Source: Phyllobates terribilis (taxonomy: Eukaryota). From it: DNA of 64,000 bases. Location: contig NW_027362761.1 in the NCBI RefSeq assembly GCF_046119375.1, positions 499,472,001 through 499,536,000 of the forward strand, given 5' to 3'. Shown piece by piece: positions 4,345 through 46,859 of the stretch. The position numbers and the translations under genes were made by a program. The notes beneath the pieces were generated by a model, which saw only the letters and a program-made list of their open reading frames with translations, was not told where the DNA came from and ran no database searches. Each line of letters starts with the position of its first letter. Position 1 is the first letter of the stretch.

Positions 4345-4699
4345 TATCCAACGCCACCGGGGGTAAGAGTACCTCTCTCCCCCAACTGAAGCCCAAACAC
4401 ACTTACAAAAAGCGCAATCAAGTACGATACCGATCCTTTCGGAACTCTTCCGGCTAGTCCGTCTCGCGACCAGCACAGAATAACCACCGTGCTCCAAGCA
4501 GGGGCAACTCGAGGCCGACGCAAAAGTCAGACAAGACCGGGCAATCAAAGGCAGGCCAGTCAAAATTTAAAGGAGGAAAATCTCGCAATTCCTCCTCATC
4601 ATGGCTCGCGAACTCTGGAAGACACCCCACCTGTAGGCGGCCGTCTTTTGCTCTTTCACCAAGTCTGGCTGCCTATTACAGAGGACAGGTGGGTTAGGG

Positions 4700-6493
4700 A
4701 ACTAGTGTCTTCAGGATACAAGATAGAGTTCACTTCCAACCCGCCAAACAGATTTTTTTCTGTCTGTTCCCCCAAAACCGCCAGCCAAGGCTCGTGCCTT
4801 CCACCACGCGGTTTCCTCGCTTCTTCAACCAGGAGTCATAGTATCGGTCCCCACGGCCGAGCGCTTCCAAGGGTTCTACTCGAATCTATTCATAGTCCCC
4901 AAAAAAGAAGGCAGCGTACAGCCCATATTGGACCTAAAACGGCTCAACAAATATGTACGGGTACGTCATTTTCGCATGGAGTCCCTTCGGTCCATAATTG
5001 CGTCCATGGAGAAGGGAGAATTTCTCGCCTCCATAGACATTCAAGACACATACCTACATATACCAATTGCGCCAGCTTATCAGAGATTTCTCAGGTTCGC
5101 AATCGACCAGGAACACTACCAGTTCGTGGCTCTCCCGTTCGGACTCGCCACAGCTCCCAGAGTGTTTACCAAGGTCATGGCAGTCACCATGGACATCCTG
5201 CACTCCAGAGGCATAATAGTGGTTCCATATCTGGACGATCTCATCAAGGCTCCCACCTTCAAGGACTGCGGAATCAGCGTCTCAATCACAATCGACATTC
5301 TGAGTCGTTTGGGCTGGTTAGTCAACTTAAAAAAGTCATCACCAACCCCGAGTCAGTCTCTGACCTTCTTGGGAATGTTATTCAACACCCTCAAGAGTCT
5401 AGTACTCCTCCCCAAGGACAAAGCACTGCCTCTCCGTATAGGAGTCCGCACCCTACTTCGCAAACCCCCTCGGTCTCTCCGGTTTGCCATGAGAGTCCTT
5501 GGCAGGATGGTGGCGGCAATAGAAGCTGTCCCATTTGCCCAGCTTCACCTCAGACCTCTCCAACTAGCCATCCTCAAGTCATGGGACAGGAATCCTTTTT
5601 CTTTCGACAGGGAGTTTCAGTTGACGTCGTCAACCAGAAGATCCCTGCACTGATGGCTCAAGCCAACCTCACTAGAAAAGGGGAAATCCTTCCTCACGGG
5701 TCAATGGAAAGTTCTGACCACCGATGCGAGCCTGACGGGTTGGGGTGCGGTACACCTACACTACAGAGCACAGGGCAAGTGGTCCCCAACAGAAGCGACC
5801 ATGCCCATCAACATCTTGGAAATTCGTGCCATTCTCCTGGCGTTGAGAGCCTTCCATCACTTACTGACAGCCTCTCACATCAGAGTACAGTCAGACAATA
5901 CCACGGCTGTGGCATATGTAAATCACCAAGGGGGGACCCGCAGTGCCAGGCGATGCTAGAAGTGACACACATTCTCCACTGGGCGGAAGACACAGGTTCG
6001 GTTCTCTCTGCGGTCCACATTCCGGGTGTGGACAACTGGGAAACAGACTTCCTCAGCCGGCAGGGAATGGACTCGGGAGAGTGGTCCCTCCATCCCGAAG
6101 TTTTTCACCAGATCTGCCATCGCTGGGGGACTCCGGACTTGGACCTAATGGCATCCCACTTCAATGCCAAGGTCTCCAACTTCATGGCCAGAACACACGA
6201 CCCGCGGTCGCTGGGAGCAGACGCCCTGGTTCAGGACTGGACTCAGTTTCAGCTCCTGTACATCTTTCCACCTCTTCCCCTGATATCCAGAGTGGTGAGG
6301 AAGATCAAGCAAGAGGGAGTTCCAACCATCCTCATCGCACCAGACTGGCCCAGACGTACGTGGTACGCCGACATCGTTCAGCTTACAGCAGACGTCCCCT
6401 GGCGTCTCCCCAACCGCCGGGATCTTCTGTCACAGGGCCCGTTCTACCACCAGAACTCAGGGGCCCTCAATTTGACGGCGTGGTCATTGAGAC
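4700..6493 (+). pseudogene. DIRS RT, RNase H and N6-adenine methyltransferase-like domain (frameshifted)
   Basis: RT motifs DLKRLN, SIDIQDTYLH, LPFGLATAPRVFTK, YLDD. RNase H-like TTDASLTGWG at ~5716. MT-like DLMASHFNAK, LYIFPP and ILIAPDWPRRTWY in a different frame. Confidence 0.9.
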
Positions 6494-7161
6494 CTACAGA
6501 CGACCACTAGAGACGTGGGATCTCAACCTGGTGCTGACAGCGTTGCAGGAAACACCTTTTGAACCCCTTAGGGAAGTCTCACTCCACCTTCTATCCCAGA
6601 AAGTGGTTTTCCTAGTGGCAATCACCTCGCTACGCAGGGTGTATGAACTCACAGCACTCTCCTGCAGACAACCCTTCCTGGCTTTTTACCAAGACAAGGT
6701 AGTTCTCCGTACGGTTCCATCCTTCCTTCTGAAGGTTGTGTCCGACTTCCACCTCAATAAGGAAATTTCACTGCCATCCCTCTGTCCGGCCCCGGTTCAT
6801 AGAGTGGAAAAGGCTCTGCATACGCTTGACCTTGTCAGGGTATTACGTATCTATGTGTCTAGGACTGCGCCCTTCCGGAAGTCTGATTCTCTTTTCCTTC
6901 TTCTGGAAGGCGGCCGCAAGGGTCTACCAGCTTCCAAAGCTACCCTTGCTAGGTGGATCAAACCCACCATACAAGAGGCCTACCGCCTCAAAAAGGACCT
7001 CCTGGGCCATTCGGCTCCAGGCCTCGGCGCAACAAGTGTGTAAGGCAGCCACCTGGACTAGTCTACACACGTTTACCAAGCACTACAGGGTTCATACCCA
7101 ATCCTCGGCAGATGCGAGCCTGGGTAGACGTATCCTACAGGCGGCAGTGCCCCAATTATAG
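6494..7161 (+). pseudogene. DIRS tyrosine recombinase, truncated
   Basis: WDLNLVL, AITSLRRVYEL (catalytic R region), ARWIK and TFTKHY (catalytic Y) are present. The N-terminal core-binding part is missing at ~6493 and the HxxR motif is lost at a frameshifting deletion near 6995. Confidence 0.85.
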
Positions 7162-17444: not shown

Positions 17445-17610
17445 CTTCAGGTAACAAAGGTGTTTTGTTTATTGCTTTCTGTAAAACTTGTGCAAGGTGA
17501 TGGTGACCAGTCTCATGAAGTACGACACAGAAGGATGTGAACATGTGATGGTCCTTGCTTTTTAGCACTTCGATAAGTTTGGCAACTTTCCGATCTGAAG
17601 ACTCCTCAAG
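17445..17610 (-). CDS. CARD-coiled-coil gene, coding exon 3 (C-terminal half of CARD)
   Basis: LEESSDRKVAKLIEVLKSKDHHMFTSFCVVLHETGHHHLAQVLQ resembles CARD helices 4-6. Donor G|gtaaga; acceptor ataaag| is non-optimal (AAG). 166 nt, phase 0 in and phase 1 out. Confidence 0.75.
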
Positions 17611-19058
17611 CTTTATTTTGTAATACATAGACAGATAAGGTAAAATATTGGTTTACATAGAGAGTTCATGTAAAATAACTAGAAATGGATACATAGTGAT
17701 GTGGCTTCTATCAGTTGACTTCATTTTTCCTACACTGAATGCAATTTTTAGAGGCACATGTCCTTTCACTATTGAAGCCTCTCTATGGAAAACACGTGAT
17801 CGGGGAGTGTGACATGAAATGAAGCGATCAAGTTTTACATGATTCGGTTTCAATGTGCATATACATTAGTATGGGAAAATCGAGACATCTGAGTGACTTT
17901 GAGACATGGTCATCGGTTTTGGAGTAGCTGAGGCCAGTGTTTAAAAAAACTGCCAATATTATGTGGTTTTCAGCCAATGGTGTGTATAAGAGTATATCGA
18001 GGATGGTGTGATCAAGAAAGAACATCCAGCAAAAAGACATCCCGAGAACATAAAAAATTAGTCACCGAAAGTGGTCAGAGGAGGCTGTCATGAATTGATC
18101 TGAAGAACAGGCAGTGCATACTTCAAATTGCTTTATGCTCTGTGATACCTTTACAGACACAGTAGGGCTTATCTATGCATATTGGCCACTAAGTTCATCC
18201 GTTCATAGCAGCCGTTTATCCTACTGCTGAAGAATGCTTTCAGTAGGACAATCCACCATGCCATAAGGGTCGTGTAATCATGGACTGGAACATGACAGCA
18301 AGTTCCGTTTCTTTCTTAGCCCTAAAAGACCCTTTACAAATTTGATAGCTATATCTCCCAACTACCCCATACATACTCCGCTGAGAACTCCTGTCTTTAT
18401 GAGAGAGTTGCTGCTAAATTCATCTGGTAGCAGCTCATCTCCAGGAAATTTATTATTTATTATTATAGCGCCATTTATTCCATGGCTCTTTAAATGTGAA
18501 AAGGGGTAGGTGAGTGTAGAGCTGGTCGTGCAGCGATATGCTGCAGCGGTGGTTACTGCAGGTTGTAGGCTTGTCGGAAGAGGTAGATCTTCAGGTTCCT
18601 TTTGAAGGTTTACACGGTAGACGAGAGTCTGATATGTTAAGGTAGAGAGTTCCAGAGTAGGGGGGGTGCACGGGAGAAATCTTGTATGCGAATGTGGGAA
18701 GATAAGATAAGAGGGGAATAGAGAAGGAAATCTTGTGAGGATCGTAGGTTGCGTGCAGGTAAGTACCGGGAGACTAAGTCACAGATGTATGTGGATGGCT
18801 TTGTATGCCGTGGTTAGGGTTTTCAACTGGAGTCTGTGGACAGTGAGGAGCCAGTGAAGGGATTGACAGAGGGGATAGGCCAGGGAATAGTGAAGGGACA
18901 GGTGGATTTGTCTGTCAGCAGAGTTTAGGATAGATTGGAGGGGTGCGAGAGTGGTAAAAGGGAGGCCACAGAGCAGGAGGTTGCAGTAGTCGAGGCAGGA
19001 GATGATGAGAGCATGTACTAGGGTTTTTGCAGATTCTTGATTAAGGAATATACGGATC

Positions 19059-20030
19059 TGTGACGATACAGCCTATAATCTTAATAAGCCAGACGTTTAG
19101 ATTTGTTAATCCAAGAGAAATACACTATTATCTTTGTGTTGACTTCTATTGCTCTGTGGAACAATGAATGTTTGCTAATTATGTTGATTAACCTTTGTGG
19201 ACCCTGTGACTTATTGACTCACAAGACAGGAGGACAAACTAAGCAAATTCATTAAATGCTTAAACAATGAGACATGAGGCTGCCCTTTCCCCCCCAACCT
19301 GTAGATGTATACTTAAAAAGGACATGTGCTTCTGTAGCAGGGGAGACTTGGAACAGAAATTAGAAAGAGACTTTACAGAGAGAGTCAAGGTTCAGACTCT
19401 GTCACACCATCAGCTTGGAAGCATAGCTTTACCTAAAGAGACACATATTTGGATTCTACATGATTCTAGTCTAAGGGTATATAGCCCTGACTGGAAAGAT
19501 GCTGATCTTCTCCATTGACCATCAGAGAGACCATGGATACATTTGGGGAGACCAGGTTGGGACGATGAAGTCACCTGGCCCCATGGATATGTTTGGGGTT
19601 GCCAGATGGGACCCTCCAGTCGTCTGGAACCCATGGAGACATTCGGAGAAGCTAGATTGAGACCAGCTGGTCATCTGTTACCATGGAAACTCTCGGAGAG
19701 GCCAGCGTGGGACCCTCTGGTCTCCTGGCCTAGTACATCGATGGACTGTCGGCTTCCTAAGCTTGCCGCTACCTTCTTTCTGTGGGGGCCCTCCAGAAGC
19801 AGGGGGCCACTGGTTGAGGTAGTTGGCCCTGGAAGTCCCAAAGTCGCAGCTGTTCTCGCCCGGGCAGAGCGGACGGGTGAGACTGTGTAATGTTGTACCA
19901 TCTTGGGTATTCGCTGTGACTGTTCTGTGTGTTTATTGGCCGCTTTATGGTTCAATAAAGTATTGCCATGCTGTTTTACCCTAACCCAGTGTTTGAGTAT
20001 GACACCCACGGAATACCCCGGGTCTTCACA
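19059..20030 (+). mobile_element. Solo LTR (972 bp) with 5-bp TSD GGATC
   Basis: ggatc|TGTGAC ... cttcaCA|ggatc, with an AATAAA at ~19954. It splits the LINE cleanly. Confidence 0.8.
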
Positions 20031-20325
20031 GGATCCCGGAAATATTGTTGAGTTGGAGTCAGCAGGAAGTGGAAAGGGCTTGGATATGTGGTTTGAAGAA
20101 GAGATTAGAGTCCACGGTTACCCCGAGGCAGCGAGCTTGCGGGACTGGGGAGAGTGAGCAGCCATTTACTTTAATGTATAGGTCTGTTGATTGAGATGAG
20201 GGAAAGATGATGAATTCTGTTTTGTCCATGTTAAGTTTTAGAAATCTAGCATAGAAGGGTGAGATAGCGGACAGACATTGTGGGATTTTGGTTAGTAAGG
20301 ACGTGATATCGGGTCCAGAGAGGTA

Positions 20326-21895
20326 CAGTGACAAGCAAAAGGGTAACAATGTTTTGAACTTTTGCCTTCTAATACTGCTTCGAATGTGAGACTTTCATCA
20401 TTTTATAGACAATCATCTTGGCTATCTCATACATAAATTTGACTTGCAACTATTTAGCATATGATTAATTTTGCAGATTTTTGTCATATCACTGCATTGT
20501 TACTGTTTAGATCCTAAAAATCAAAATTGTAATTTTAATTATTTTGCTAGTATTTTGTAAATCCACCTTTTGCTTTCAACACTGCCTGAATCCTTCTGGG
20601 CATGCTCTCGATCAGATTCAAGCATGTCTTGACCAAAATTTGATCCCAGGTCTCTTCTAGGCTTTTCCAAAGTTGGTGGATACTGGTCGACTCACTTAGG
20701 TATGTATACAGTTTTTTCTTCAACTTTACTCACAAGTGTTTATTTGGGTTGAAGTCTAGGGACTGTGGGGACCAATCCAGCACCTCTGCTTCATTATCAT
20801 TGAACCATTTCTTTGCCAATCTTGATGTATGCTTTGGGTCATTGTCCTGCTGGAACACTGTCATCCTTTTCATACCCATAGTACTCAAGTGTATGAAGTA
20901 ATTCGTCTTGTAGGATACTCGCCTATAGCTCAGCATTGAGATCATCATAAATCCTGGTCAAGTTTCCAACGCCTTTGGCTGTGAAACAACCCCATATCAT
21001 AAGGCATCCTTCACTAAACATGACAGTTCCTTCAAATTCGCAATTCGTTAGCCTCTTTTTCCCTTTTTTCTTCATTTGCACTCATCAGAGCTTAGCCCAT
21101 TGACTTTCGTCTCATCACTTAAAATCACTAGTTTCCAATCTTCAACTGTCCACTTTTCGTACTTTTTTGCAAACTTGAGCCGACGCTTCTTATGATGGTA
21201 TTGAAGTCGAGGCTTCTTCACCTTGTTTCAAGCCACTATTCCAGACTTGTGTAATGTGCATTGCATGGTGCTTGCTTGCACGTCTGTGGTCTCACTATAA
21301 GAAAGCATACGAGCCACTCCACTGCCACATTTGTCACGCCAGAATTGATAGATCTTGTGATGAACCAACTTGTTGACTTCAATATTTTGCCTGGACATCC
21401 ACCTCTTGGCTTTTGAATGGATGGACAGACTTCATTTTGTATTCTTCCAACTGTAATGGCACTCGCATAATGCAGTTTGTCAATTTTCTTGGCCGAGAGA
21501 CCGCTATTGATGAGCTGGATTATGCTGTTTCTCTTTTCTTAAGAAATCTTCTTCATGGCTACTTCTCTATTCGAACCAGTGACCTCTCACTTGGGAATCA
21601 ATCTAATAACACACTGAGCTATTAGGGAATGTGAGAACAGATTGTATTTTGTAGTATACAGAAAGAAAAATACTTTTCCACCACCAGGAGCAAAACAGTA
21701 ACAATGTAGTGACATGACAAGAATCCGCATAACTAATCATATGCAAAATATTTGCAAGTCAAATTTATGTATTAGATAGCCAATATGATAGTCTATAAAA
21801 TGATGGTAGTCTCATGTTTGAATCAGTCGTGGATTTTGAGATATGGAGCCTGAAGGTCAAAAGTTCAAAACATTGTTCCCTTTTGCTCGTTACTG
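20326..21895 (-). mobile_element. Tc1-like element (degenerate) inside the LINE
   Basis: TA|cagtgacaagcaaaagggtaacaatgttttgaacttttg versus caaaagttcaaaacattgttcccttttgctcgttactg|TA; QQDNDPKH on the minus strand. Confidence 0.85.
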
Positions 21896-24800
21896 TAGAT
21901 CTGTGTGTCATCAACATTAAGGTGATACTGAAATCTGTAGTAAAAGGGAATGGTTAACTGTGTCAAAAGCAGAGGACAGGTCCAGGAAGAGGAGGACAGA
22001 GTAGTGTTGCTTGGATTTGGCAGTTAGGTCATTGGTGAGTTTAGTCAGGGCAGTTTCAGTGGAGTGATGTGGTCGGAAGCCAGATTGTAAGCTGTCAAAG
22101 AGGAAGCAGCAGGAGAGGTGGGAGGACAGTTCAAGATGGAAGTGTTGTTCCAGTAGTTTTGAGGCGTAGGGGAGAAGTGATATGGGGCGATAGCTAGACA
22201 CAAAGGGTAAGTCAAGGGAGGGCTTTTTGAGGATTGATGTGATTGAGGCTTGTTTGAAGCATAAGAGAAAAACACCAGTTGTTAGTGACAGGTTGAAGAG
22301 ATGGGTTAAGTTTGGGATGAGATGGGATCGGGTCGAGTGCACATGTGGTGAGGATGTGATCTTGAGAGTAGAGAGGAAAGTTGATCTTCTGTAATGGTGG
22401 AGAAGCTGGTTTTTGAGGGGATGGGCTGAGTAGTTATGAGGAGGGACTGTGGGAGCTGTAGGCCAAAGCTTTCTCTGATGTTATCGATCTGCTTGAAGAA
22501 TGAGGCAAAGTCTTCAGCTGAGAGGAGAGCGAAGAGGTGCTGGGGAATGGAGGAGAGAATTGAAAAGGTTGAATAGCTGTTTAGGCTTGTGAGACAGGGA
22601 GAATATGAGAGATGAGAAGTAGGTTTGTTTTGCTACAGTGAGTGTGGACTTGAAAGTAGTGAGGGACTGTTTTAATGTTATGAAGTGCTCATTGGAATGG
22701 GATCTTTTCCATCTCCGCTCAATAACCCTGGAAGTCCGCCTCAGTTCTTTAGTCAGGCTGGTGTGCCAGGGTTGCCTGTTGATTTTGCGAGCTTTGGTAT
22801 GTGTGAGGGGGGCGACCGATTCGAGAGCTGCAGCTGTTGCAGTGTTATATAAAGCGGCAGCAGCATCTGCATTGTGTAAGGAACTTATGTTTGCCAGAGG
22901 GAGAAGGGATTCAGAGAGTGAGTGCAGATCAAGGTGTTTAAGATTTCTGTGAGGGTGTGCAACATTGTGGACCTGGAGAGGAGAGGGAAGAGAATGTAAG
23001 TAGGCTATGATCAGAAAGAGGGCGAGGTGAGCTAGAGAGGTTAGAAGGGGAACAGAGGCGGGTGAAGATGAGGTCCAGTATGTGGCCATCTTTGTGAGTG
23101 GCTGCGGGCGACCATTGAGCGAGGCCAAAGGACAAAGTGATAGAAGTTTAGAGACAGCTGAGTGGGAAGTGTCAATGGGGATGTTGAAGTCACCCATGAT
23201 GATAGTGGGGATGTCAGCGGAAAAGAAATGAAGTAGCCAGGTGGCAAAGTGGTCGAAGAAGGTGGTAGCTGGCCCTCGGGCGCGGTAAATGACAGCCAGT
23301 TGGAGAGGGGGTAGATGTGCACAGAGTGCACCTCAAAACAAGGGAGAGCACCAGAGAGTGGCAGTGGAACTTGGGTGAATAAAAGGATCAGCCATTTGAA
23401 AACCAACAAGCTGGATTCTTCTCTCCCCTATCATCTGTCGTGAAAGAGTCCAGAGTACACATTAGACTGCCAGCCGATCTAGCCGATATCTAGTCTAATG
23501 TGTATGGAGCCCGAACAGTCCACTGATCTTAATCTTACAGAGCATCTCTGAGACAAGATAGAACAGAATGTTTAGATCATATTAGTGCAGTCATCTTATT
23601 TGCGGCAACTACAAAAAGCCATCCTGTCCACATATACCGATATGTTGTGTAGAAAAATGTCAACACTTAAAAGGATATTCACATCTCCAACATCCTGTCC
23701 CAAAATGTAGTAGGTGTAAAAATAATAATATTAGCAATGTAGTATAATTCTTCTGATTAGCTATGTCGCTTACCCCTTGTGCACAACATTGCAGTAGCTT
23801 AGGTCTCCATGGTTATGACCACAATCAACTAACTATCACTATATGAGTGGTCGTAACCTTGGATACTGTAATGACCTGCACATGGGGTAAGCAACCTAGA
23901 AATGTAGTATAGTTCTAGTTCTTCTGATTAGCTATGTCGCTTATCCCATGTGCAGTGCATTGCAGTAGCTTAGGTATCAATGGTTACGACCACTCATATA
24001 GTTACAGTTAATTGTTAGTGGTCATCAAAACCATGGATACCTAAGCTACTGCAATGCCCTGCCCTTGGGATAAGCAACATAGCTAATTAAAAAAACTATA
24101 CTACATTTAAAATTGGAGGTGTTTGCTAATATTACTATTGTTACATCTAGAAAACCAAAGTAGACCAAGCCAAACCAAGTCGGCAAAAAAAGGGTATACA
24201 GTGTTAAGAGAACCAGACAGAGAAAAATATACCCAATAAAAATTAATTTTTAATTAATTATAATTACCATTAAAAGTGTCCTTAATAGTCCAAATGGGAC
24301 ACATCATAACTAAACATATCAGATAAAAACATATGGGGGAGAAATAAGGATGCCAGGATATACAGACAAGCTTGCCCTATATGGCCCTTATAAGGTAAAT
24401 ACCCTACCTAACAGCGGAGTGTTTTCACCCTAACGAACGGTTTGGTGTCCCCGCTCCACGAAGGCTGTCCCTTGTCTGACACTAAATCTCCCTAAACAGA
24501 CACACAATTTAAATTTCATAGGTATTGACCAAAATCAGTCATGCCATTATTAACATGCTAAATATTTATGTTAAATGGGGGAAGAAGTGAAAAAAACAGA
24601 GGGAAATATATCCCATAAATATTTATCAGTAGGATCATAGCCAGTCCTCCACCATTAGTGCACATAGGTGGGGGCCGTACAAACAAACACGAACACCCCC
24701 AAACGTTTAAACAGATATAGATTGGTTGGGACTATTTCTAATGGACACTTTTGCTTATGGGTCTACACCAGTGATTTTCAACCTTTTTTGAGCCGCGGCA

Positions 24801-24920
24801 CACTTTTTATACTTAGAAAATCCTGGGGCACACCACCAACCAAAATAGCACAAAATGACACTAAAACAGTCATATTATACATATAGTTAATAATATAGAT
24901 TCTAAATTTATTTTACTCAC

Positions 24921-26825
24921 TCAGTGTGAAACATGGGCCTGTTTCGATAAACACAAAAGGGATATCCTGGCAGGAATGGTGGAAAGACACACACGAAGCT
25001 CTTCCTCAACAGTTCTCAGTTTCTCCCTGTTTTTAGTTTTTATCGCAGTCAAGCTTGAGAAGCCCAGCTCACATAGATATGTGGTTGAAAATGGGAGCAA
25101 TGTCAAAATAGCTTTGTTGGCCAGAATAGGGAACTCCTTGGCAACAGATAACCAAAAACTGTCCAAAGGAAGATCAGCAAACTTTAGCTTTAAACCGCGA
25201 TCTTGCTTCAGTTCAACGAGTTCCTCTTGCTCCTTTAAAGTCATGCCCTTTCCAGCAACGGATAATGAGCTGTATGGGTCCCTAACCCAGTCAAGGCATT
25301 CTGTGAAGGCTGAAGAGAAATAGAACGATAACTTCTCCTCAAGAGTTTTCAAATGTCTGCCAATCGCTTCGCACATTGCAGCAGTATTGTCATCATGCAG
25401 TTTCTCGGTGAGTGGGAACATCTGAAGGTTGCCACCCTGCACATGTTGTTGCCAGAGCTGCACCTTTAAACGGAATCCGTTCATTTTATCAGTGCTTGTA
25501 AGCAGGTTTTCATTTCGACCTTGCATCCGTGTGTTTAGTTCATTCAGATATTGAAATATATCAGCCAGGTATGCCAGCTTTGCACACCACTCATCACTTG
25601 CAAGCAGCTTTGAATAATCGGACCTCTCGTTTGTAAGAAATATTTTAAGTTCCTCTCGCAACTCATACACACGGGCCAGCACTTTGCCGCGTGACAGCCA
25701 CCTGACCTCCGTGTGGAGCAATAAGATTTTATGTTCCGCTCCCATTTCTGTACACAAAGATGCAAATAAGCGACATCTCAAAGGTCGCGTCTTCACAAAG
25801 TTCACTATGCGCACAACATCATCCAACACAGGAGCTAGATCTGCTGGTAAGGTCTTTGCAACGAGGGCCTCACGGTGCAAGAAACAGTGGGTAGCAAGAA
25901 CATCTGGGTTTCTTTCTTTAACCCTACTTACAAAGCCTTTGATGCGCCCGACCATGGCTGCGGCTCTATCAGTGCAGACACCTGTGCAGTTTTCCCATGT
26001 AAGTCCACTTTTATCAAGATATTCTGATGTGACTTGGAATATTGCCTCTCCTGTTGATTTTTCTGTCAGTGACTTCCAAAATAGGAAGTTTTCTCTAATG
26101 GCTTCACCATCCACAAAACGCACATTGGCCAACAACTGACAATGTCCACTGATATCCGTCGACTCATCAAGTTGCAAGGCAAATTTCTTCCTGATGCGCA
26201 CCTTTTCCAAAACAACTGTTTCAATGTCCGCAGACAAGTCATCAATCCGTCTGGCAATTGTGTTATCAGAGAGAGGCACTTTAGCTATCTCTTTAGCTGC
26301 TTCAGGGCCAAGCATCTCATTTACAATAGCTTTACAAGCTGGTAGTATTAATGTTTCTGCCACAGTGTGGGACTTTTTTGATTTAGCTATGAGTTCAGCA
26401 ACAAGGTAGCTAGCTTTGAGGGCTCTCTCATTTACCTTTGTGCTTTTTCTCAAAAAAGTTGCCCCTTTCTCATTGTTTGTACGTAAGCGTACAAAATACT
26501 CCATCGGTTTATTTTGAACGGAAGGGTGTTTCGTTTGGAGATGGCGTTTAAGTTTGCTTGGCACCATAGCGCTATTGGAAAGCTTCTCACCACACACCAA
26601 GCACAGTGGTGTTGGTGCTGTCGCATCCCCAGTGGAAGTAAATCCAAATGAAAGATAGCTTTCACTGTATTGCCTTGAGCTCACCGTCTTGTCTTTTTTC
26701 TTTTGTCGAACTCTCATACTAGGGCCTTCATTTGGGTTAGAATTGTGTCCAGGGTCCTGTTCGGCATTTGCCTTTTCCATTCTCAAATACTTCTCCATCA
26801 CTGCTGAGATAGTGTGCGCAGCCAC
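24921..26825 (-). CDS. hAT (Buster/ZBED5-like) transposase, 634 aa, uninterrupted
   Basis: BED finger CLVC...[10 protein letters not shown]; LDESTD; CTDRAAAM; HCFLH (CxxH); EVRWLSRG; C-terminal dimerisation region [15 protein letters not shown]...EEELRVCLS. Confidence 0.9.
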
Positions 26826-26866
26826 ACACTAAAATAGAAGAGTATTACATTATCTGCCACACTTAA

Positions 26867-27264
26867 AGGACCTCTGCTAGGCATATTTCATTCCTGAGGG
26901 CTTAAAAAGCAGCTCTCGTGGTGACAAGAAGCTGATTTAAACCCCCCAAGAGTGAACTTCGCGAGAGCTGTATGTGTGTGATAATAACTTCTATTACTAC
27001 GGTCTGCATTTCCTGCTTGAATTGACACTAGTGACGTAGCACTCAGCTTTCTCTATAAGTAGAATAGAGCCGGCTGCCAAGTGCTACGCCACTAGAGTCA
27101 ATTCAAGCAGGACATGACTGCTGAAGAACGGTACTAATATCATTTATTATTCCATACATACAACTCTCACGGAGTTCACTCTTGGGGGTTTTAAATCAGC
27201 TTCTTACCACCACAAGAGCTACTTTTTTAGCCCTCAAGAGTGAAATATGCCTGGCAGAGGTCCT
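26867..27264. mobile_element. T2/Kolobok-like MITE in the hAT 5-prime region
   Basis: ttaa|aggacctctg ... cagaggtcct|ttca, with ~100-bp inverted arms. It lies about 40 bp upstream of the transposase ORF start. Confidence 0.75.
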
Positions 27265-29816
27265 TTCAATAAATTATTTATTTTAAAAAAGTGAAATAAA
27301 AAAGGATAACCCCCTCATATATTCAATCCCATGTAACCTCATAAATACAGTCCCACGTATATGAGCACATGATTATCAGCATCATATACTGTGGTGATGT
27401 GCACTGTACAGCGCCACAGTATATGGTGCTGATTATTATGTGGCTCATATACTGCAATATAAAGGGGTACAATGAGAAGTACTATGGCCATGAGGCCAGA
27501 GTACAAGTGCCAGCTCATATACTCAGCATATGAGCTGGTACTTGTAGTACTCCAGCCTCATGACTATAGTATTTCTCATTTTACATTTCTCATCGTTATA
27601 TGCAGTATACTGCTGGAGTACTAAAAGTACCAGCTCATATGCTGAGTATTCTGCCAACAGTTCATATACTCAGGCAAAAGCTCATATTGTCAGCATTATT
27701 GGCGGGCATTACCTTGGCGGCGGGCAAATGCGAGAGTCTCTCCGCTCTCAGGATGACGCGCCGTCCTCGGTGACGTCATTAAGTCGCGCGAGGTTCAAAG
27801 CTTGCGCATGTGTTATTGTACACGTCTCCTACATTGTAAGAAGGCGTGACTGCGCATCGAGCGCATTGCCGGGAAACAAAACACAGGGGGCACCATAGTT
27901 TGGGGAACTTTCCCCGCGGCACACCCGACCATGTGTCGCAGCACACTAGTGTGCCGCGGAACACTGGTTGAAAATCACTGGTCTAAACCACCTTGAAGGA
28001 CCAGGAAAGTGGGAGCCCGGATTGATTGGAAATTCTTTGTGAAGTCTTAACTGTGAATTTATATTGGAACCATACAGCCACCTATTGAGGGGCCTAAAGA
28101 ATTACTATCTGAGACGCCTGCTGGGACCTTCGGATGGACTAGAGACCAGATAAGTCCATTCCTTTCGTTATACTTTGACCAATCTATATCTGTTTAAACG
28201 TTTGAGGGTGTTCGTGTGGTTTTTTGTACGGCCCCCACCTATGTGCACTAATGGTGGAGGACTGGCTATGATCCTACTAATAAATATTTATGGGATATAT
28301 TTCCCTCTGTTTTTTTCACTTCTTCCCCATTTAACATAAATATTTAGCATGTCAATTATGGCATGACTGATTTTGGTCAATACCTATGAAATTTAATTGT
28401 GTGTCTGTTTAGCGAGATTTAGGGTCAGACAAGGGACAGCCTTCGTGGAGCTGGGACACCAAACCGTTCGTTAGGGTGAAAACACTCCGCTGTTAGGTAG
28501 GGTATTTACCTTATAAGGGCCATATAGGGCAAGCTTGTCTGTATATCCTGGCATCCTTATTTCTCCCCCATATGTTTTTATCTGATATGTTTAGTTATGA
28601 TGTGTCCCATTTGGACTATTAAGAATGTAGCACCCTGAGGATTCGGCTGCTACAGGGGTATTACACCTCAAGCCAGAGGTGTGGTATTCCACTCCCGGGT
28701 AAGGATGGAGTGTGGAACTGAGCTCAGTAGGCTGCATGCACTACATACATCCCATTTCCGGGGGACAGACCGATGGTACTCCCACTAGAGAAATGTGCAG
28801 GTACGACAGTGTCTGTCCCTGGCTGGAGTGGGAGGGGGGTGGAACATCCCAGTAGTGTAGGGGCAGATAGGGGGAGCAGTCTGGGTAATGCTAGGAGCTC
28901 ATTGGGTGCTGGTCACCTGAGCTCACACATAGAGGGAGTATATAAGGTGGGAACCATCTTAGAACAGGGTCTTTTGTAGAGGTTTGGTCTGAAAGTCAAC
29001 AGCCAGCTCCAAGGCCAAGAGAGAGAGAGAGGAGAAAGAAGGACCCAGAGGGGGAGAAGAGGGAACTCCAAGAACCCAAAATTAGACCAGAGGGTGAAGA
29101 GTTGGCACAAGGGTACCGGATCCCAAGCTGGTGGAGGGCACTAATCCTTAGCCAGAGACCGGAGGTCGTGGGCAGGATCTGCCACGACCACCCACTAAAT
29201 CCACCCAGAAGGCAAACCAAGAATAGGGTCAGGGAACCCAGAGACAAGGGTTTTACCAACAAGAGGCCCGAGGGAGCCGGACTTAGGTGGATCCCTGGTG
29301 GGGAAGGCCAGAGAGAAGGACAAGTCAGAAAGGGAGCTCAGGAACACGCTCCAGAATCACCTGGGGGTTGGCCGAGTCCAGGACCTGGTGGACGCAGCAC
29401 GGCTCGGGTGGTCACTCAAGGCCGGAGTGACCAGAACAACAGCAGTAAGTAAAACCCTGAACTGCACAGCCCGACTCGGAGTCTTATTACCACCCTCACT
29501 GCACCACCACAACCACCACCCTCTACAACTGACCCCCTGAGGCTATACCCCTCCCGTTGGGGGTTATACTACCCGAAGCTGCACACACACCACCAGCCTC
29601 AGCGGACCCTGCTGCAGCGGCGGCCGTAGTGACCGCAAATCAACGGGTGGCGTAGTCGACACTAAAGAACATCCAGTAACATCTGTAGGACTGCCACACA
29701 CTGAGCTTGACACCCTGGGCACGGACCGGGTCACCGCCTCTCGGAGACTACAACCCCCATCTGATCCGGCTCCGGGTATCCCCCAAACAACACTGGCCCA
29801 GGGGGCACGTCAACTT

Positions 29817-29834
29817 TGGCGTAGTCGGCAGGAT
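29817..29834 (+). promoter_or_regulatory. Primer-binding site complementary to the vertebrate tRNA-Ser 3-prime end
   Basis: TGGCGTAGTCGGCAGGAT is the reverse complement of ATCCTGCCGACTACGCCA (tRNA-Ser 3-prime end including CCA, recalled from the human tRNA-Ser(AGA) sequence). It starts 4 nt after the 5-prime LTR. Confidence 0.85.
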
Positions 29835-29971
29835 AACGTGCCCGCAACAACCGGGTACTGCGTGCCTGAAGAAAAGTTCATCGTTACCTTAAAAAGAAGT
29901 CTCCCGCCGGTTCCGGAGGGTCCCCGCCAACGGACTCCATCACAGGTCGTTTCCCGCCGGTTGTCCGCCAT

Positions 29972-31777
29972 TTGCAGCTTTTCCCGCCATCCATGGAGTT
30001 TCCCGCCACTGGGAGACGATTCCCGCCATTTCCAAAGATTTCCCGCCTTGGAAGAGCGGACGCCATTATGGGCGTGCCAGAGGGTGGCAAGAGGCCACCT
30101 CCCATCGTGGGCCAGGTCGAAGAATGGCGCCAAAAGCGGAAACCGCGCCCACCAACAGAGACTGTGATGCTGGAAGTGTCCATCAGCGTGAGAGAACTGC
30201 CCCTGGAACTGACAATCACAAAGTTGCCCCGGGACCACCTTCAATGTGGGCGGAGACAGAACAAGAGAGCAAAGATGGGTGTCGCCTGGAGGAGTCTGGA
30301 GAGAGCGCACCCGGAGACAAGAAGTCTGGAGAGGAGTCCAGAGAAAGCGTACCCGGAGATGGAGGGAGAGACAGGCAGCACCGACCCAGTGGTCAGGAGC
30401 CTGCTGCAAGCAACAACCCCACTAGGCTTAGTGGAGATCCTAGCACAGCTCCCCCGAGACCGGGAGTGTGCACAGACTGCGCTGGAGGGCCTCGCACGGA
30501 GGATGGCCCGGGTGCAGCGAGAGACGTTGGCGGAGTGGAGCCGAGAGATGGCCCAGCGGACCGAAACCCGTCAGCGGAGCACGCCACCCGAGACGAGGAG
30601 ACAGACCGCCTCTGAGGATGGTGCAGGAAGAGTGAAGGCCGGAGACGGCGCCGAGAAGGGAGCTGAACGGACGGAGGCAGGTAAAGGGGACGTCTCTACC
30701 CCGAGCCGGGAAACCGCGTGCCTGCCCCAGCTCCCCGTCGCAGAGCCCGAAATTCCCCCTGCCGTGCCCGTCGCTGCATCGTCACCGCCGCAGACTAGGC
30801 CTCAACCGGAAACCGCGGCCGCGACCCCTGTGACGTCACGCGCTTCGACCCTGAGCGCGGCAAAGCAGGAAATACCATCGGCCTGGTCGCAAGGCCTAGT
30901 ACACCCGGGCGCCGCCATTCCAACAGCGCCCCCTACCTCCGCGGAGCCACCAGCCTGGTCGCAGGGCCGAGTAACCACGGGCGCCGCCGTTCTTACGGTG
31001 CCCTTTTCCTTTAGCGTGCCCCAAGCCTGGTCGCAAGGCCTGGTCAACCCGGGCGCCGCTACCACCACAGCGCCCATAACACCTAAAGTACCGCACCTGG
31101 GTGAGGACCTGTTCGCCCAGCATACGTGCCCGGATGGGCAGCCCTTTGTGTGGCCACCGGAGTTTCACCATCCCCGACTCCGGAAAGAAAGACCCCTAGA
31201 TGAGCCCCTGATTCCGGTTCCGAAGCCCGTCAGGAGAACCCCGCTCCCGCTAGAAGAAGCACAATTCGAGTGGGACCCCACCGGAGGAGATCTCATGGGG
31301 TTCACTCAAGAAACGCGGGCAGCCGCAGCAGAGCGAGTGGAGTGCTGCCGCCAGCAGTTGGCAGACTTCGAGCGAGAACGGAAAGAGAGGCGGATCCGTG
31401 AGCAGCGGCTGCAGGAACGGAGCGCAGGGCAGAAGAGCCGGACCAGGAGGAGCCCCCGTGCGGCTCATGGTCCCCGTACCACCGGGACTGTGATTAAATT
31501 CAACCTGCAGCATGGGTGGGGCTTCATAAGAGACCATCATACCCCCGGCGACGTCTTTGTCACCCGCAGAGACGTAGAAAGCCATCTGCCGGAGGGACAC
31601 AGAGGTCGTGACCTGTATGTAGGGGACGAGGTCACCTTCGCCCGGCACAAGTGTGCCAAAGGACCCTACGCCCTCCATGTACATCGCCTGACGGAGGAGG
31701 AGCTGCGGTGTGAGGAGGAGCAGGAGGACCCGGACGGGTCTGAAGATAAAGAAGGAGCAGGAGGACGCCGTCGTTAA
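29972..31777 (+). CDS. Retroelement-borne protein (~600 aa): helical region, Pro/Ala/Thr-rich linker, coiled coil, C-terminal cold-shock domain, acidic tail
   Basis: The CSD at ~31484-31689 is GTVIKFNLQHGWGFIRDHHTPGDVFVTRRDV...LYVGDEVTF...GPYALHV, with RNP1-like GWGFI and RNP2-like DVFV. First ATG at ~29992. Three 24-aa AWSQG repeats (72-bp period at 30881, 30953, 31025). Confidence 0.8.
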   Translation: MQLFPPSMEFPATGRRFPPFPKISRLGRADAIMGVPEGGKRPPPIVGQVEEWRQKRKPRPPTETVMLEVSISVRELPLELTITKLPRDHLQCGRRQNKRAKMGVAWRSLERAHPETRSLERSPEKAYPEMEGETGSTDPVVRSLLQATTPLGLVEILAQLPRDRECAQTALEGLARRMARVQRETLAEWSREMAQRTETRQRSTPPETRRQTASEDGAGRVKAGDGAEKGAERTEAGKGDVSTPSRETACLPQLPVAEPEIPPAVPVAASSPPQTRPQPETAAATPVTSRASTLSAAKQEIPSAWSQGLVHPGAAIPTAPPTSAEPPAWSQGRVTTGAAVLTVPFSFSVPQAWSQGLVNPGAATTTAPITPKVPHLGEDLFAQHTCPDGQPFVWPPEFHHPRLRKERPLDEPLIPVPKPVRRTPLPLEEAQFEWDPTGGDLMGFTQETRAAAAERVECCRQQLADFERERKERRIREQRLQERSAGQKSRTRRSPRAAHGPRTTGTVIKFNLQHGWGFIRDHHTPGDVFVTRRDVESHLPEGHRGRDLYVGDEVTFARHKCAKGPYALHVHRLTEEELRCEEEQEDPDGSEDKEGAGGRRR

Positions 31778-33750
31778 AGTACGGTAAAGAGACTGTAAAT
31801 GGTTACCCATCGGGGTACAGTGAACTGTTGCTGCTTTAAATATGTCCCCGTTGGGACAAGAGTGAACTGTTAACCCGTGTGTCCCTATTCCCATTACCTG
31901 GCCGAGAACTGAGAGCGGCCATATTCCCCCTGTATATAGTTGCGCTTTCTAAGGCGCCCTCTACAGGTTTTATAGGAAAACCGTGTTAGACTGTCGCACT
32001 TTACCCGGTCACAAGTTGCACCGTGGCCGGAGGAACAAGAATGTTATTTATGAAAAGTTTATGCTGATATATATATTGTTTTATATGTTTATGTTTATGA
32101 AAAAAAATTGTATGTTTTGGATGTTTTTTTATATCTTACAGCCCGAGGACGTGCTGTGATTTACCAGGGGGGAATGTAGCACCCTGAGGATTCGGCTGCT
32201 ACAGGGGTATTACACCTCAAGCCAGAGGTGTGGTATTCCACTCCCGGGTAAGGATGGAGTGTGGAACTGAGCTCAGTAGGCTGCATGCACTACATACATC
32301 CCATTTCCGGGGGACAGACCGATGGTACTCCCACTAGAGAAATGTGCAGGTACGACAGTGTCTGTCCCTGGCTGGAGTGGGAGGGGGGTGGAACATCCCA
32401 GTAGTGTAGGGGCAGATAGGGGGAGCAGTCTGGGTAATGCTAGGAGCTCATTGGGTGCTGGTCACCTGAGCTCACACATAGAGGGAGTATATAAGGTGGG
32501 AACCATCTTAGAACAGGGTCTTTTGTAGAGGTTTGGTCTGAAAGTCAACAGCCAGCTCCAAGGCCAAGAGAGAGAGAGAGGAGAAAGAAGGACCCAGAGG
32601 GGGAGAAGAGGGAACTCCAAGAACCCAAAATTAGACCAGAGGGTGAAGAGTTGGCACAAGGGTACCGGATCCCAAGCTGGTGGAGGGCACTAATCCTTAG
32701 CCAGAGACCGGAGGTCGTGGGCAGGATCTGCCACGACCACCCACTAAATCCACCCGGAAGGCAAACCAAGAATAGGGTCAGGGAACCCAGAGACAAGGGT
32801 TTTACCAACAAGAGGCCCGAGGGAGCCGGACTTAGGTGGATCCCTGGTGGGGAAGGCCAGAGAGAAGGACAAGTCAGAAAGGGAGCTCAGGAACACGCTC
32901 CAGAATCACCTGGGGGTTGGCAGAGTCCAGGACCTGGTGGACGCAGCACGGCTCGGGTGGTCACTCAAGGCCGGAGTGACCAGAACAACAGCAGTAAGTA
33001 AAACCCTGAACTGCACAGCCCGACTCGGAGTCTTATTACCACCCTCACTGCACCACCACAACCACCACCCTCTACAACTGACCCCCTGAGGCTATACCCC
33101 TCCCGTTGGGGGTTATACTACCCGAAGCTGCACACACACCACCAGCCTCAGCGGACCCTGCTGCAGCGGCGGCCGTAGTGACCGCAAATCAACGGGTGGC
33201 GTAGTCGACACTAAAGAACATCCAGTAACAGCTGTAGGACTGCCACACACTGAGCTTGACACCCTGGGCACGGACCGGGTCACCGCCACTCGGAGACTAC
33301 AACCCCCATCTGATCCGGCTCCGGGTATCCCCCAAACAACACTGGCCCAGGGGGCGCGTCAAGAACACTTTTAATGGTAATTAATTAAAAGTTCATTTTT
33401 ATTGGGTATATTTTTCTCTGTTTGGTTCTCTTAATATTGTTACATCTACTACATATTGGAATAGGATCTTGGAAATGGGAATATCCCTTTAATGGAATCT
33501 ATGCCACAATGCTGTAGTTCTGCACCCTACTAGATTGGTGTCTCTATTATAGTGATCATTCAGTGTATATATATTTCTAGTTAGCATAAATGCTTGCGGA
33601 CACAAGACCTAGAAAATCCACTAGAAATTGAATATCCACAAATAATAAAGTCTCAGCTTGTCTACATTGTTATATTCAGAATTATAGCGCTATGCCACTG
33701 TGGATTTGTAAATTACTGTACACAAAACTAACTATAAAACCATATTTTAC

Positions 33751-43632: not shown

Positions 43633-45853
43633 GGTTAAGTGCCCACGTAGTGTTTTTGTAGCGTTTTTACGACTGTGAAAACGCTTGTAAAACAGTCTGC
43701 CATTCAAAGCAATGTGAATTCGGATGTGCTGTGCACATAATAATTAGCGCGCCGAATTCGCATTGCGTTGCAAAACGCAGCATGACCATTTCTACCGCGA
43801 TTACGCTGCAAATTCGCGGCCATTGAGGAACATTGAAACGCAGCAAACCCGCAGGTATATGTGGATTTGCTGCGTTTCAATTAAATTCAATGGCCGCGAA
43901 TTTGCAGCGTAATCGCGGTGCGTGTGGTACCCGGGATGAAGAGAAGACTACAACTCCTCTTCATCCCGGCTACCATGCGGTGAAAAAAAGAAATAAAAAA
44001 GTTAAAAATAAACAAAACCTGTATATTTGTAGCACCCCGAGGGCTCGGCTGCTACAGGGGTATTGCACCTCAAACCAGAGGTGTGATATTCCACTCCCGG
44101 GTAAGGATGAAGTGTGGACCAGGGCTCAGTTAGCTGCATGCATCACACACACCCCATTTCCGAGGGACAGCTCAACGGTGCTCCCACTAGACAGAAGTGC
44201 AGGCACGACAGCATCTGTTCCTGGCTGGAGTGGGGAGGGGGTGGAATACCCAGTGGTGTAGGAGCAGATAGGGGTGGGTCTCTGGGCATAGATAGGAACC
44301 CATTGGTTGCTAGTCACCTGGGCTCACACATAGAGGGAGGTATATAAGGTGGGCACCATCTTAGGACAGGGTTCAGTTCAGAGAGGAGGAGAAGAAGACA
44401 GGAGCTCAGCCAGAGAGGGCTGACAGGGAGCTGTGGCTCAGTCTGGGCCCAGCTCCAGAGGCAGGCCTGGAGTGGAGGCCAGAAACAGCAGAAAGAGAGA
44501 GGAGAAGGAACGGAAAGGAAAGTAAGAAAGGAACTGGAACAGAGGAGAAAGGAAGCAAGGAACACAGAGAAAGGCCCAGAGACACGAGGACCGAAGGAAC
44601 CCCATATGCCCAGAGGAGATACAGGGTGAAGGGTTGGCAGAACAGGGTACCGGAACCCAAATTGGTGGAGGCGACTAATCCTCAGCCAAAACCGGAGGTT
44701 GTGACCACATCTTGGTGCAACCCCTCACTACATCCACCAGGAAAGCATACCACATAGGGTCAGGGAAACCGGGAGAGGTTTCGCCAACAGAAGGCCCGAG
44801 GAAGCTGGACAAAGGTGGGTCACTGGTGGGGACGGCCAGAGAAAGGTAGAGAAGGGAGCTCTGAACCACACTCTGGAATTACCTGGGAGTTGACAGAGTC
44901 CCTTGCCTGGTGGACGCAGCACGGCTCGGGCAGTCATCGCCTGCAGCATTGACATGAACAACAACTGTGAATAAAGCATTGAAAACTGCAACCGCACGTC
45001 TCTGTGGTTCCTCGCCGCACCAGCACCATTAGCACTGGGACGCTCACACCATCATTCCCATCATCTCTCACATTAGCTGCCCTGAGGCAATACTTCTCCC
45101 GTGGGGAGTTATCCCATACTCCGCTGCGCAAACAACATCAGCCTCAGCGGTCTGCAGCGCAGCGGCGGTCCCCACTGACCGCAATCCACGGGTGGCGTAG
45201 TCAGACATTTGCTATACATTAAGACTGCCACTGGTTTGACCACCCTGGGCACGGACCGGGTCACCGCCACACGGAGACTACAACCCCCAGCATCCTACAA
45301 CAGGCCCGGTTCCGGGTTCCCCAGCACAGCACAGGCCCAGGGGGCGCGTCATATTCACCTCTCCGGCGGCCCCCAATCTGCTCCCGGCCACTTCCTCTCT
45401 GCTTGGCGTCCCGCGGTGTACTGTCAGGACCTGCGGTGACGTCATTTAGTCACCTGATGGTCACGCGACCGCTGACGTCGGCGGTCAGGTGATGGTCGCG
45501 TGACCATCAGCTGACTAAATGAGGTCACCGCAGGTCCTGACAGTACACTGCGGGACGCGAGGAGAGTGGACGCCGCCGGCAGCAGACTGGAGGAGACCGG
45601 AGAGGTGAATATACAGGTTTTTTTTATTTTTAACGATTTAATTCTCTTTTTTTCACTATAGATGCTGCATTTAAAGCATCAGTTGTTCACACATTATAAA
45701 TCCATGCCGGTTGCATGGATTTATATTGTGTGACCAACTTGTCAAGCACTTTTCCAAGTGATGCTCAAAATCGCTTGGAAAACTGCTTGAAAAAACGCTT
45801 CTGTCTGGCAGAAAAAACGCTCTGCATCAAATCTGCTACGTGGGCACATAGCC
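43633..45853. mobile_element. PIF/Harbinger-like MITE (TTA TSD) interrupting the transposase; hosts a solo LTR
   Basis: tta|ggttaagtgcccacgtag ... ctacgtgggcacatagcc|tta. Confidence 0.85.
44028..45351 (+). mobile_element. Solo LTR (1324 bp) related to the cold-shock-domain element, 4-bp TSD TATT
   Basis: tatt|TGTAGCACCC ... ggggcgcgtCA|tatt; both ends are clearly homologous to the 28626 LTR and the middle is diverged. Confidence 0.9.
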
Positions 45854-46165: not shown

Positions 46166-46819
<654 letters not shown>

Positions 46820-46859
46820 TAAGTTAAGAGTACTATCATTTCTGTCCAGGCCTATTTAA

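Follow-up and report, generated by a model that had tools for sequence, protein, structure and literature searches.

The locus at positions 28626-33361 of the window (the whole 64,000-nucleotide stretch of Phyllobates terribilis DNA analysed here) raises the question of how an LTR retroelement lacking gag and pol is copied, and why its single gene should encode a cold-shock domain (CSD) protein. The window element is a Ty3/Gypsy-type LTR retrotransposon without gag or pol. Its 5' LTR (28626..29812, + strand, as for all features given below; TGT...TCA) and 3' LTR (32175..33361) are each 1187 bp long and are separated by exactly 5 substitutions and no gaps, where the initial annotation had counted about 5 differences. 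They are flanked by an AGAA target-site duplication (28622..28625 on the left, 33362..33365 on the right) and enclose an interior of 2362 bp. The interior contains an 18-nt tRNA-Ser primer-binding site (29817..29834), pairing with the 3' terminus of a tRNA-Ser(TGA) gene found in the genome, CCA added, and a polypurine tract, AGGGGGGAA (32166..32174), which abuts the 3' LTR; the duplication, both priming signals and an interior of 2.36 kb had all been correctly recognized beforehand. A TATA-like box (28939-28944) and an AGTAAA poly(A)-like signal (29448-29453) in the 5' LTR are assigned putative functions from their position. The empty target site can be read independently from the other arm of the inverted-repeat element that hosts this insertion. 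Inspection of ORFs and Pfam matches, which also covered family members, detected no RT or integrase of the element's own.

The reading frame is open from 29870 to 31777 (635 codons). The ORF of about 600 aa originally proposed is indeed uninterrupted, with 594 aa counted from the first ATG (29993), but the ATG retained in all 15 subfamily representatives is that at 30068, from which translation probably starts, yielding a single ORF of 569 aa (30068..31777) with no gag, pol or CCHC motif. The encoded protein is predicted to comprise a long helix 1 (aa 132-170; 30461..30577; region dN/dS 0.37), a Pro/Ala/Ser/Thr-rich, predicted disordered linker containing three 72-bp AWSQG repeats (30875..31090), a conserved W-D-x-x-G-x-D-L-M-G-F motif (aa 402-412; 31271..31303; dN/dS 0.10 over aa 401-440), a long charged helix 2 in which half of the residues are D, E, K or R (aa 414-461; 31307..31450), and the CSD (aa 470-540; 31475..31687). 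Coiled-coil heptads are weak (hydrophobic a/d 0.45-0.46), and no oligomer is therefore claimed. A protein search with the whole ORF returned one relative only, and the best ESM Atlas scores, at 0.84, serve purely as leads. Contigs from four sequencing runs of uncertain kind cover the element and are uninformative on expression.

The CSD is the sole Pfam family at E<=0.1 in the ORF (PF00313, E=3.5e-8; score 33.6 bits, cut-off 27). Its model is a five-stranded OB barrel (pLDDT 87) with a loop of Y-box length, and Foldseek matched it to CspA at TM 0.83 and to YBX1/YBX2 at TM 0.76-0.82, so that profile and fold both confirm the domain anticipated from its motifs. The further claim of Y-box likeness stands for the RNP motifs and the long loop, but not for the positions of Y-box W65 and H87, which are occupied by K and T. 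None of the 62 lineage-1 domains keeps W65, which gives way to K or R, or H87, which gives way to T, N, K or A. F74 and F85, by contrast, do not vary, and W stands in for Y72 in 61 of the 62; according to PMC7498358, positions F74, F85 and Y72 are nucleic-acid contacts in YB-1. Two of the four Y-box base-stacking residues, W65 and H87, are thus replaced in the element CSD, and canonical Y-box RNA binding cannot therefore be assumed. The near-invariant CSD with W65, F74, F85 and H87 that characterizes the Y-box family is not found in the element, whose domain is probably derived from that family rather than a member of it.

The window CSD itself scores YBX and bacterial CspA about equally, and its origin was addressed through related CSDs, which are present in poison-frog and toad proteins. 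Diverged relatives give gap-free alignments to YBX, with scores 3-12 bits higher than for bacterial proteins; three relatives have YBX1/2 as their top, gap-free PDB matches, and one relative (L345) is a decayed Y-box-like copy whose status as an element is undemonstrated. In a tree containing no true vertebrate YBX row, 21 element-type domains group together at 93/91, and a search for host YBX exons with a Y-box-like protein recovered only a decayed copy and a low-copy CSD gene. The relatives trace best to Y-box proteins and suggest that the CSD was likely captured from a host Y-box gene.

The junction between LTR end and primer site has 36,371 matches in the 10.6-Gb genome, which bears out the expectation of a multi-copy family and an ORF that is not unique. 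In a sample of 40 consecutive junction matches, 26 were CSD-type elements and 13 were gag-bearing Ty3/Gypsy elements with a common U5 and primer site, and the CSD-type copy number was estimated at 23,600 (17,600-28,900), about 1% of the genome. Target duplications were tallied on 20 fetched copies, of which 4 with an incomplete LTR were excluded; the 16 whole copies show a 4-bp duplication in 15 cases and a 5-bp duplication in one. LTR pairs are 98.4-100% identical in the 20 of 40 sampled elements having a matched duplication. The label "young" fits the window copy but not the family, which is old and diverse; copies as little as 56-60% identical in DNA keep one reading frame.

The autonomous partner postulated for this non-autonomous element is present as a co-resident gag-pol family, of which one scanned copy encodes a PNMA-like gag, a zinc knuckle, RT, RNase H and integrase, arranged as in Gypsy elements. 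The last ~280 bp of the window LTR (U5) are 74-82% identical to this family, and the primer site with the next ~40 nt is 87-95% identical to it in most copies; the LTR comparison found no U3/R similarity. Over the last 120 nt of U5 the window subfamily is only 83% like its nearest partner, and its specific helper is therefore not pinned. Passenger and partner are linked by recombinants in which LTR parts have been swapped. Recombinant L201 joins a passenger U3 and a partner leader to a U5 that, in each of its two LTRs, matches a partner copy at 95-96%; and one truncated interior is bounded by partner-type LTRs at 2 of 5 loci and by passenger-type LTRs at the other 3. A solo LTR of a sister subfamily within the window (44028..45351, TATT duplication) has a U3 85% like the window element and a U5 89% like a gag-pol partner copy, as against 72% like the window element. 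The common cis signals, together with the swaps in both LTRs of recombinants, indicate that the passenger is likely mobilized in the partner's particles. The pol frames adjoining two copies (L088 and L096) were rejected as evidence of partnership, because the passenger had inserted into those elements, and a 3' untranslated motif common to passenger and partner is unsupported, since its AT-rich match scored 45 and shuffled sequences reached 44.

The domain also occurs on other carriers. A second CSD family has LTRs that match the window element only at the primer site, and none of 30 of its interiors carried gag within the first 1.5 kb examined. Short elements exist whose ORF begins at the CSD, and the CSD is the only part common to the long, short and second-family forms. 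Selection was estimated as pairwise NG86 dN/dS with codon bootstrap, on pairs that are not independent and between subfamilies that have likely recombined. For the CSD, dN/dS was 0.13 (0.08-0.20) at a dS of about 1.1 in 15 subfamily representatives drawn from 42 whole ORFs, with shifted-frame controls at 1.5 and 1.9; it was again 0.13 (0.07-0.23) in 11 representatives of 21 second-family frames, and 0.14 and 0.20 in two pairs of short CSD-start elements. Synonymous divergence increases along the ORF, dS being 0.30 at its 5' end and 1.1 by the CSD, and the first 72 codons evolve almost neutrally (dN/dS 0.70, 0.51-0.98). The CSD and the motif and helix preceding it are under purifying selection, at values well away from the dN/dS near 1 that would have undermined the original reading of the ORF.

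Copies without the domain are nevertheless mobile. Among the 26 sampled CSD-type copies, 11 are broken or deleted, including 5 with a deletion running through the CSD, and two CSD-deletion junctions have 129 and 30 genomic matches, respectively. All 6 fetched copies of the first junction are genuine insertions, each bounded by matching LTRs and a 4-bp duplication. Seven copies with this junction are 96-98% alike, equally close to an intact copy, and group together with support of only 68/90, so this junction may recur at microhomology instead of marking one lineage. The second deletion group, with copies 92-95% alike, has evidently persisted through several rounds. Since CSD-deleted copies still integrate, an individual copy does not strictly require the protein, and these copies, together with the replaced stacking residues, count against a strict packaging role.

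The explanation that we favour, tentatively, is that of a passenger with a private RNA-protecting factor. Element RNA would be copied by the enzymes of the co-resident gag-pol partner family; the protein, through a likely Y-box-derived CSD that probably binds element RNA, would protect the RNA of its own element, and the protected RNA would enter partner particles in larger amount. The advantage would be partial rather than essential: CSD-less copies often arise and integrate yet stay rare, and CSD-bearing lineages last long. Host YB-1 aids retroviral RNA metabolism and particle production, as described in the accessible portion of PMC6040738. We put forward with somewhat less assurance a broader proposition, namely that these elements form an anuran passenger class defined by one Y-box domain, which would have been captured once before the toad/poison-frog split, moved among unrelated LTR backbones and been rebuilt as an accessory protein that beats the helper or disarms germline RNA silencing, helping to drive giant poison-frog genomes.

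The strongest competitor, unlikely though deserving attention, casts the protein as a counter-defence factor. Acting as a mimic or decoy of Y-box proteins in the cell that expresses the element, it would blunt silencing by the host (through Y-box masking, small-RNA or RNA-surveillance pathways), to the benefit of passenger, helper and deleted copies alike. Such a role would suit a binding face that has been remodelled while the fold is strictly kept, and would accommodate the movement of CSD-deleted copies; the strongly conserved short motif and the helix before the CSD may resemble a protein-contact site, and both families are amplifying now, to judge from their LTR identities. A product freely available to all copies, however, should decay faster than is suggested by a dN/dS of 0.13, seen in two unrelated families at saturated dS, and the host partner is putative only.

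More doubtful is the idea that the protein transactivates its own LTR through a Y-box-like DNA site in U3. Passengers retain their own U3 though U5 is common with the partner, three of five passenger LTRs and none of three partner LTRs have an ATTGG some 40 bp upstream of the TATA box, the acidic tail and basic stretches of the ORF protein would be compatible with such a function, and a trans-acting product would account for deleted copies. Yet ATTGG is also the ordinary CCAAT box, which counts against this reading, it is absent from 2 of 5 passenger LTRs, and related CSDs serve LTRs without detectable U3 similarity.

A highly diverged gag, with the CSD in place of nucleocapsid and the helices in place of capsid, is already disfavoured and appears very improbable. 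The ORF directly follows the primer site, a gag-like position, and PMC4585706 describes Xenopus 1a11 as an LTR element that lacks pol and encodes a Gag-like protein of 71 kDa. Against this, profile comparison with the partner gag gave E=0.85, a gag family match was found in 0 of 20 members, and the short forms hold little besides the CSD. The capsid fold that might have lain hidden in the N-terminal part was likewise not recovered: outside the CSD the structure model, whose confidence is low (mean pLDDT 49), consists solely of disorder and two isolated helices, and viral fold matches at E<=0.001 are CSDs only. That the gene is neutral cargo, a captured retrocopy carried along, is scarcely credible, for although the near-neutral N-terminal codons and the broken or deleted copies would fit it, the dN/dS results refute it for the CSD and the region before it, with equally low CSD values in two families and a single frame kept across the most divergent copies.

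LTR passengers tend to be regarded as non-coding or in decay. The passenger described here keeps a likely host-derived protein under strong selection and is about twice as common as its helper among the 40 sampled matches (26 against 13), and its natural series of long, short and deleted forms on two backbones offers a view of how selection keeps a gene in a dependent element. It also accounts for frog gene models that carry the name 'Y-box-binding protein 2-A-like' or are fusions with host genes. Soybean SARE and SNRE are an autonomous/non-autonomous LTR partnership with LTR swapping, which likewise involves a common primer site and LTR part and the exchange of LTR segments; in that plant system we know of no Y-box-derived gene under selection. 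Vertebrate YBX1/YBX2 have the same barrel and long loop as the element CSD, but are only ~30% identical to it and retain W65 and H87; the element protein is, in addition, intronless, with its CSD near the C-terminus after two helices.

Surveys of Ty3 elements that count pol ORFs, as in the available text of PMC12822217, miss this passenger fraction. In the open-access literature searched, neither this element nor any other Gypsy passenger that lacks gag and pol and carries a CSD is described, and 'cold shock' is absent from the accessible parts of PMC6278860, PMC12822217 and PMC4585706. Xenopus laevis 1a11, Xretpos and lambda-olt 2-1 are likewise pol-less frog LTR elements (PMC4585706, available text); 1a11, which is transcribed from midblastula to gastrula, encodes one 71-kDa protein, which is described as Gag-like. 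A published precedent for the capture of a CSD by LTR retroelements comes from birds, whose endogenous retroviruses (PMC12287698) resemble the frog element in having taken up a host PF00313 domain. The available text of that article reports 46 CSD-carrying ERVs arising from several captures, read as adaptive by its authors, and neither 'frog' nor 'YBX' occurs in its main text. The bird carriers are RT-classified retroviruses of the ERV-A/B and ERV-G groups (PMC12287698, same portion), whereas the frog carrier is a Ty3/Gypsy passenger without gag, pol or env, in which the CSD ORF is the only gene, copies number in the tens of thousands and selection has been measured. Taken with the independent captures by bird retroviruses, the frog passenger suggests that Y-box function is a limiting step for LTR elements.

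The element at 28626–33361 (hereafter the passenger) is bounded by two 1,187 bp LTRs, identified by LTR comparison at 28626–29812 and 32175–33361, that differ by 5 substitutions, enclose a 2,362 bp interior and carry AGAA at both flanks, with an 18-nt primer site matching a tRNA-Ser(TGA) gene of this genome with CCA appended. Its single open frame (29870–31777) encodes 569 aa from the ATG conserved across subfamilies (30068). A Pfam search of this ORF detected only a cold-shock domain (CSD), the predicted structure of which (pLDDT 87) resembles CspA and YBX1/2 (TM 0.76–0.83). The LTR pair, duplication, primer site and long CSD-bearing ORF of the initial annotation are thus confirmed, the domain by both profile and structure prediction. 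By eye, a pyrimidine-rich, splice-acceptor-like stretch ending in AG (~32120–32141) lies just 5' of the purine tract and is similar across diverged subfamilies.

The passenger interrupts one of the two arms (97% identical over 448 bp) of an inverted-repeat DNA element spanning ~24200–33430. On the minus strand this long element holds an open 635-codon frame (24921–26828) that has weak BED/DUF4371 matches and probably encodes a hAT transposase. Elsewhere, Tc1/mariner transposase pieces (DDE_3, HTH_Tnp_Tc3_2) lie at 46166–46822 and 58270–58833, and 3043–7043, whose frames show a Dam-like methyltransferase match and recombinase-like sequence, is presumably a DIRS-type retroelement.

The junction of LTR end and primer site has 36,371 exact matches in the 10.6-Gb genome, against 0 for the reversed control. 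The nearest database proteins carry poison-frog labels, which points to a poison-frog genome. The first 40 matches by position, a non-random sample from the initial 12 Mb of a single contig, comprised 25 copies matching the ORF, one truncated relative (L201), 13 gag-bearing copies and one unassigned copy. CSD-type copies, solo LTRs excluded, are estimated at ~23,600 (17,600–28,900), or ~1% of the assembly, bearing out the multi-copy family that had been proposed. No break interrupts the frame between the conserved ATG and the end of the CSD in 15 of 26 CSD-type copies. Where the duplication matched (20 copies), LTR pairs are 98.4–100% identical, so amplification is recent, though subfamilies are strongly diverged (ORF identity as low as 56%).

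The dN/dS test suggested for the CSD was run as pairwise NG86 on 15 representatives <93% identical, drawn from 42 whole ORFs, and yielded 0.13 (0.08–0.20) for the CSD, 0.19 for the 129 codons preceding it, 0.37 for the helix 1 region, 0.55 for the linker and 0.70 for the first 72 codons; the CSD read in shifted frames gave 1.9 and 1.5. In those first 72 codons (30068–30283) dN and dS are both low (dS 0.30 vs 1.1 at the CSD), which may reflect an RNA signal, an overlapping frame (30124–30615) or recombination. A second CSD family in the same genome (L296–L314, e.g. L299; L315–L344), reached through a toad protein annotated as 'Y-box-binding protein 2-A-like', has the same tRNA-Ser primer site, unrelated ~1020-bp LTRs and 470 exact junction matches; gag was found in 0 of 30 copies within the first 1.5 kb of the interior, and no helper was found. 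Short elements (L090–L092, L135, L152) have a different primer site, shared with an existing gag-pol family, an ORF starting at the CSD and an interior of ~1.4 kb where measurable (L092). Since CSD dN/dS is also 0.13 in the second family and 0.14–0.20 in the short elements, the CSD is the selected core common to all forms.

Element-type CSDs also occur in database proteins, known as proteins only, labelled Phyllobates, Ranitomeya (two species), Anomaloglossus and Bufo. In a tree of 28 rows that included no true YBX row, 21 element-type rows grouped together (93/91), and the window's lineage joined four other poison-frog proteins (100/100). The window's own CSD is too diverged to choose between YBX and bacterial CspA; the toad protein and L347, a low-copy CSD ORF, align gap-free to YBX1/2, which ranked first. 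Of the YB-1 nucleic-acid contacts W65, F74, F85 and H87 listed in the available part of PMC7498358, F74 and F85 are invariant in all 62 domains of the window's lineage, while W65 is replaced by K/R and H87 lost in 62/62; Y72 is W in 61/62. Low-copy intronless CSD ORFs at L347–L349 (three copies inside 40 kb) and L295/L351, where paired LTRs were not found, could represent ancient elements, domesticated genes or the sequence from which the domain was captured; the H87 position is retained in L347, and the toad protein P0163 and L351 are 51% alike. Intronless multi-CSD copies (L051–L056), one continuing into a LINE-like frame, resemble CSDE1 retrocopies. Four gene models (P0157, P0158, P0159, P0162) fuse element-type CSDs to host or transposase sequence (R3HCC1, UVS.2-like, serine protease 33-like), through either annotation artefact or exonisation.

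The gag-bearing copies, with young LTR pairs and duplications, are Ty3/Gypsy elements encoding, in the one copy scanned, a PNMA-like gag, zinc knuckle, protease, RT, RNase H and integrase. Similarity to the passenger covers the final ~280 bp of the LTR (73–82% identity) and, at 87–95% in most copies, the primer site and ~40 nt beyond, but not U3/R; these copies fit the anticipated partner with a matching LTR end. L201 combines passenger U3 with the partner's leader and, in both LTRs, a U5 with 95–96% identity to that of a partner copy. Matches to the L201 junction number 30, and the five loci seen carry passenger-type (3/5) or partner-type (2/5) LTRs; the solo LTR at 44028 is swapped in the same way. 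A swap carried by both LTRs, as in L201, must have gone through a round of reverse transcription, consistent with passenger and partner having shared particles. L188 pairs a partner LTR at its 5' end with a passenger LTR at its 3' end and could have arisen by later recombination at the DNA level.

Deletions through the CSD affect 5 of 26 sampled CSD-type copies. One deletion junction has 129 matches, possibly recurrent deletions from different intact parents, and all six copies fetched are real integrations; the L201 group, with its truncated CSD, persisted for several rounds and numbers only 30 copies. Individual copies can thus do without the protein, yet CSD-keeping lineages dominate. We tentatively favor, from sequence comparisons, a model in which the partner's enzymes would copy the passenger and its protein, as a private Y-box substitute, would bind and protect its own RNA, which would bring a partial advantage. 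According to the portion of PMC6040738 available, retroviral RNA metabolism and particle output are supported by host YB-1, and an excerpt of PMC6278860 reports that Gypsy transcripts as a class, rather than this family in particular, are high in the ova of a different poison frog. A counter-defence decoy is a less likely role for the protein, and LTR transactivation is doubtful. A diverged gag is very improbable: in keeping with the gag-less reading of the initial annotation, no gag similarity was found by profile comparison (E=0.85), Pfam or viral folds, and the cryptic capsid it had raised did not materialize, the full-length model predicting two single helices besides the CSD and otherwise low-confidence disorder. 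Neutral cargo, finally, is scarcely credible for an ORF with a selected core.

The literature yielded no account of a Gypsy passenger that lacks gag and pol and has a selected CSD as its only gene, Repbase and Dfam lying outside the search. The CSD passenger is real, and CSD capture by LTR elements is itself already known, its repeated occurrence in bird ERVs being described in the accessible text of PMC12287698. Among frog LTR elements, Xenopus 1a11 and Xretpos also lack pol; they are known here by description only, from part of PMC4585706.
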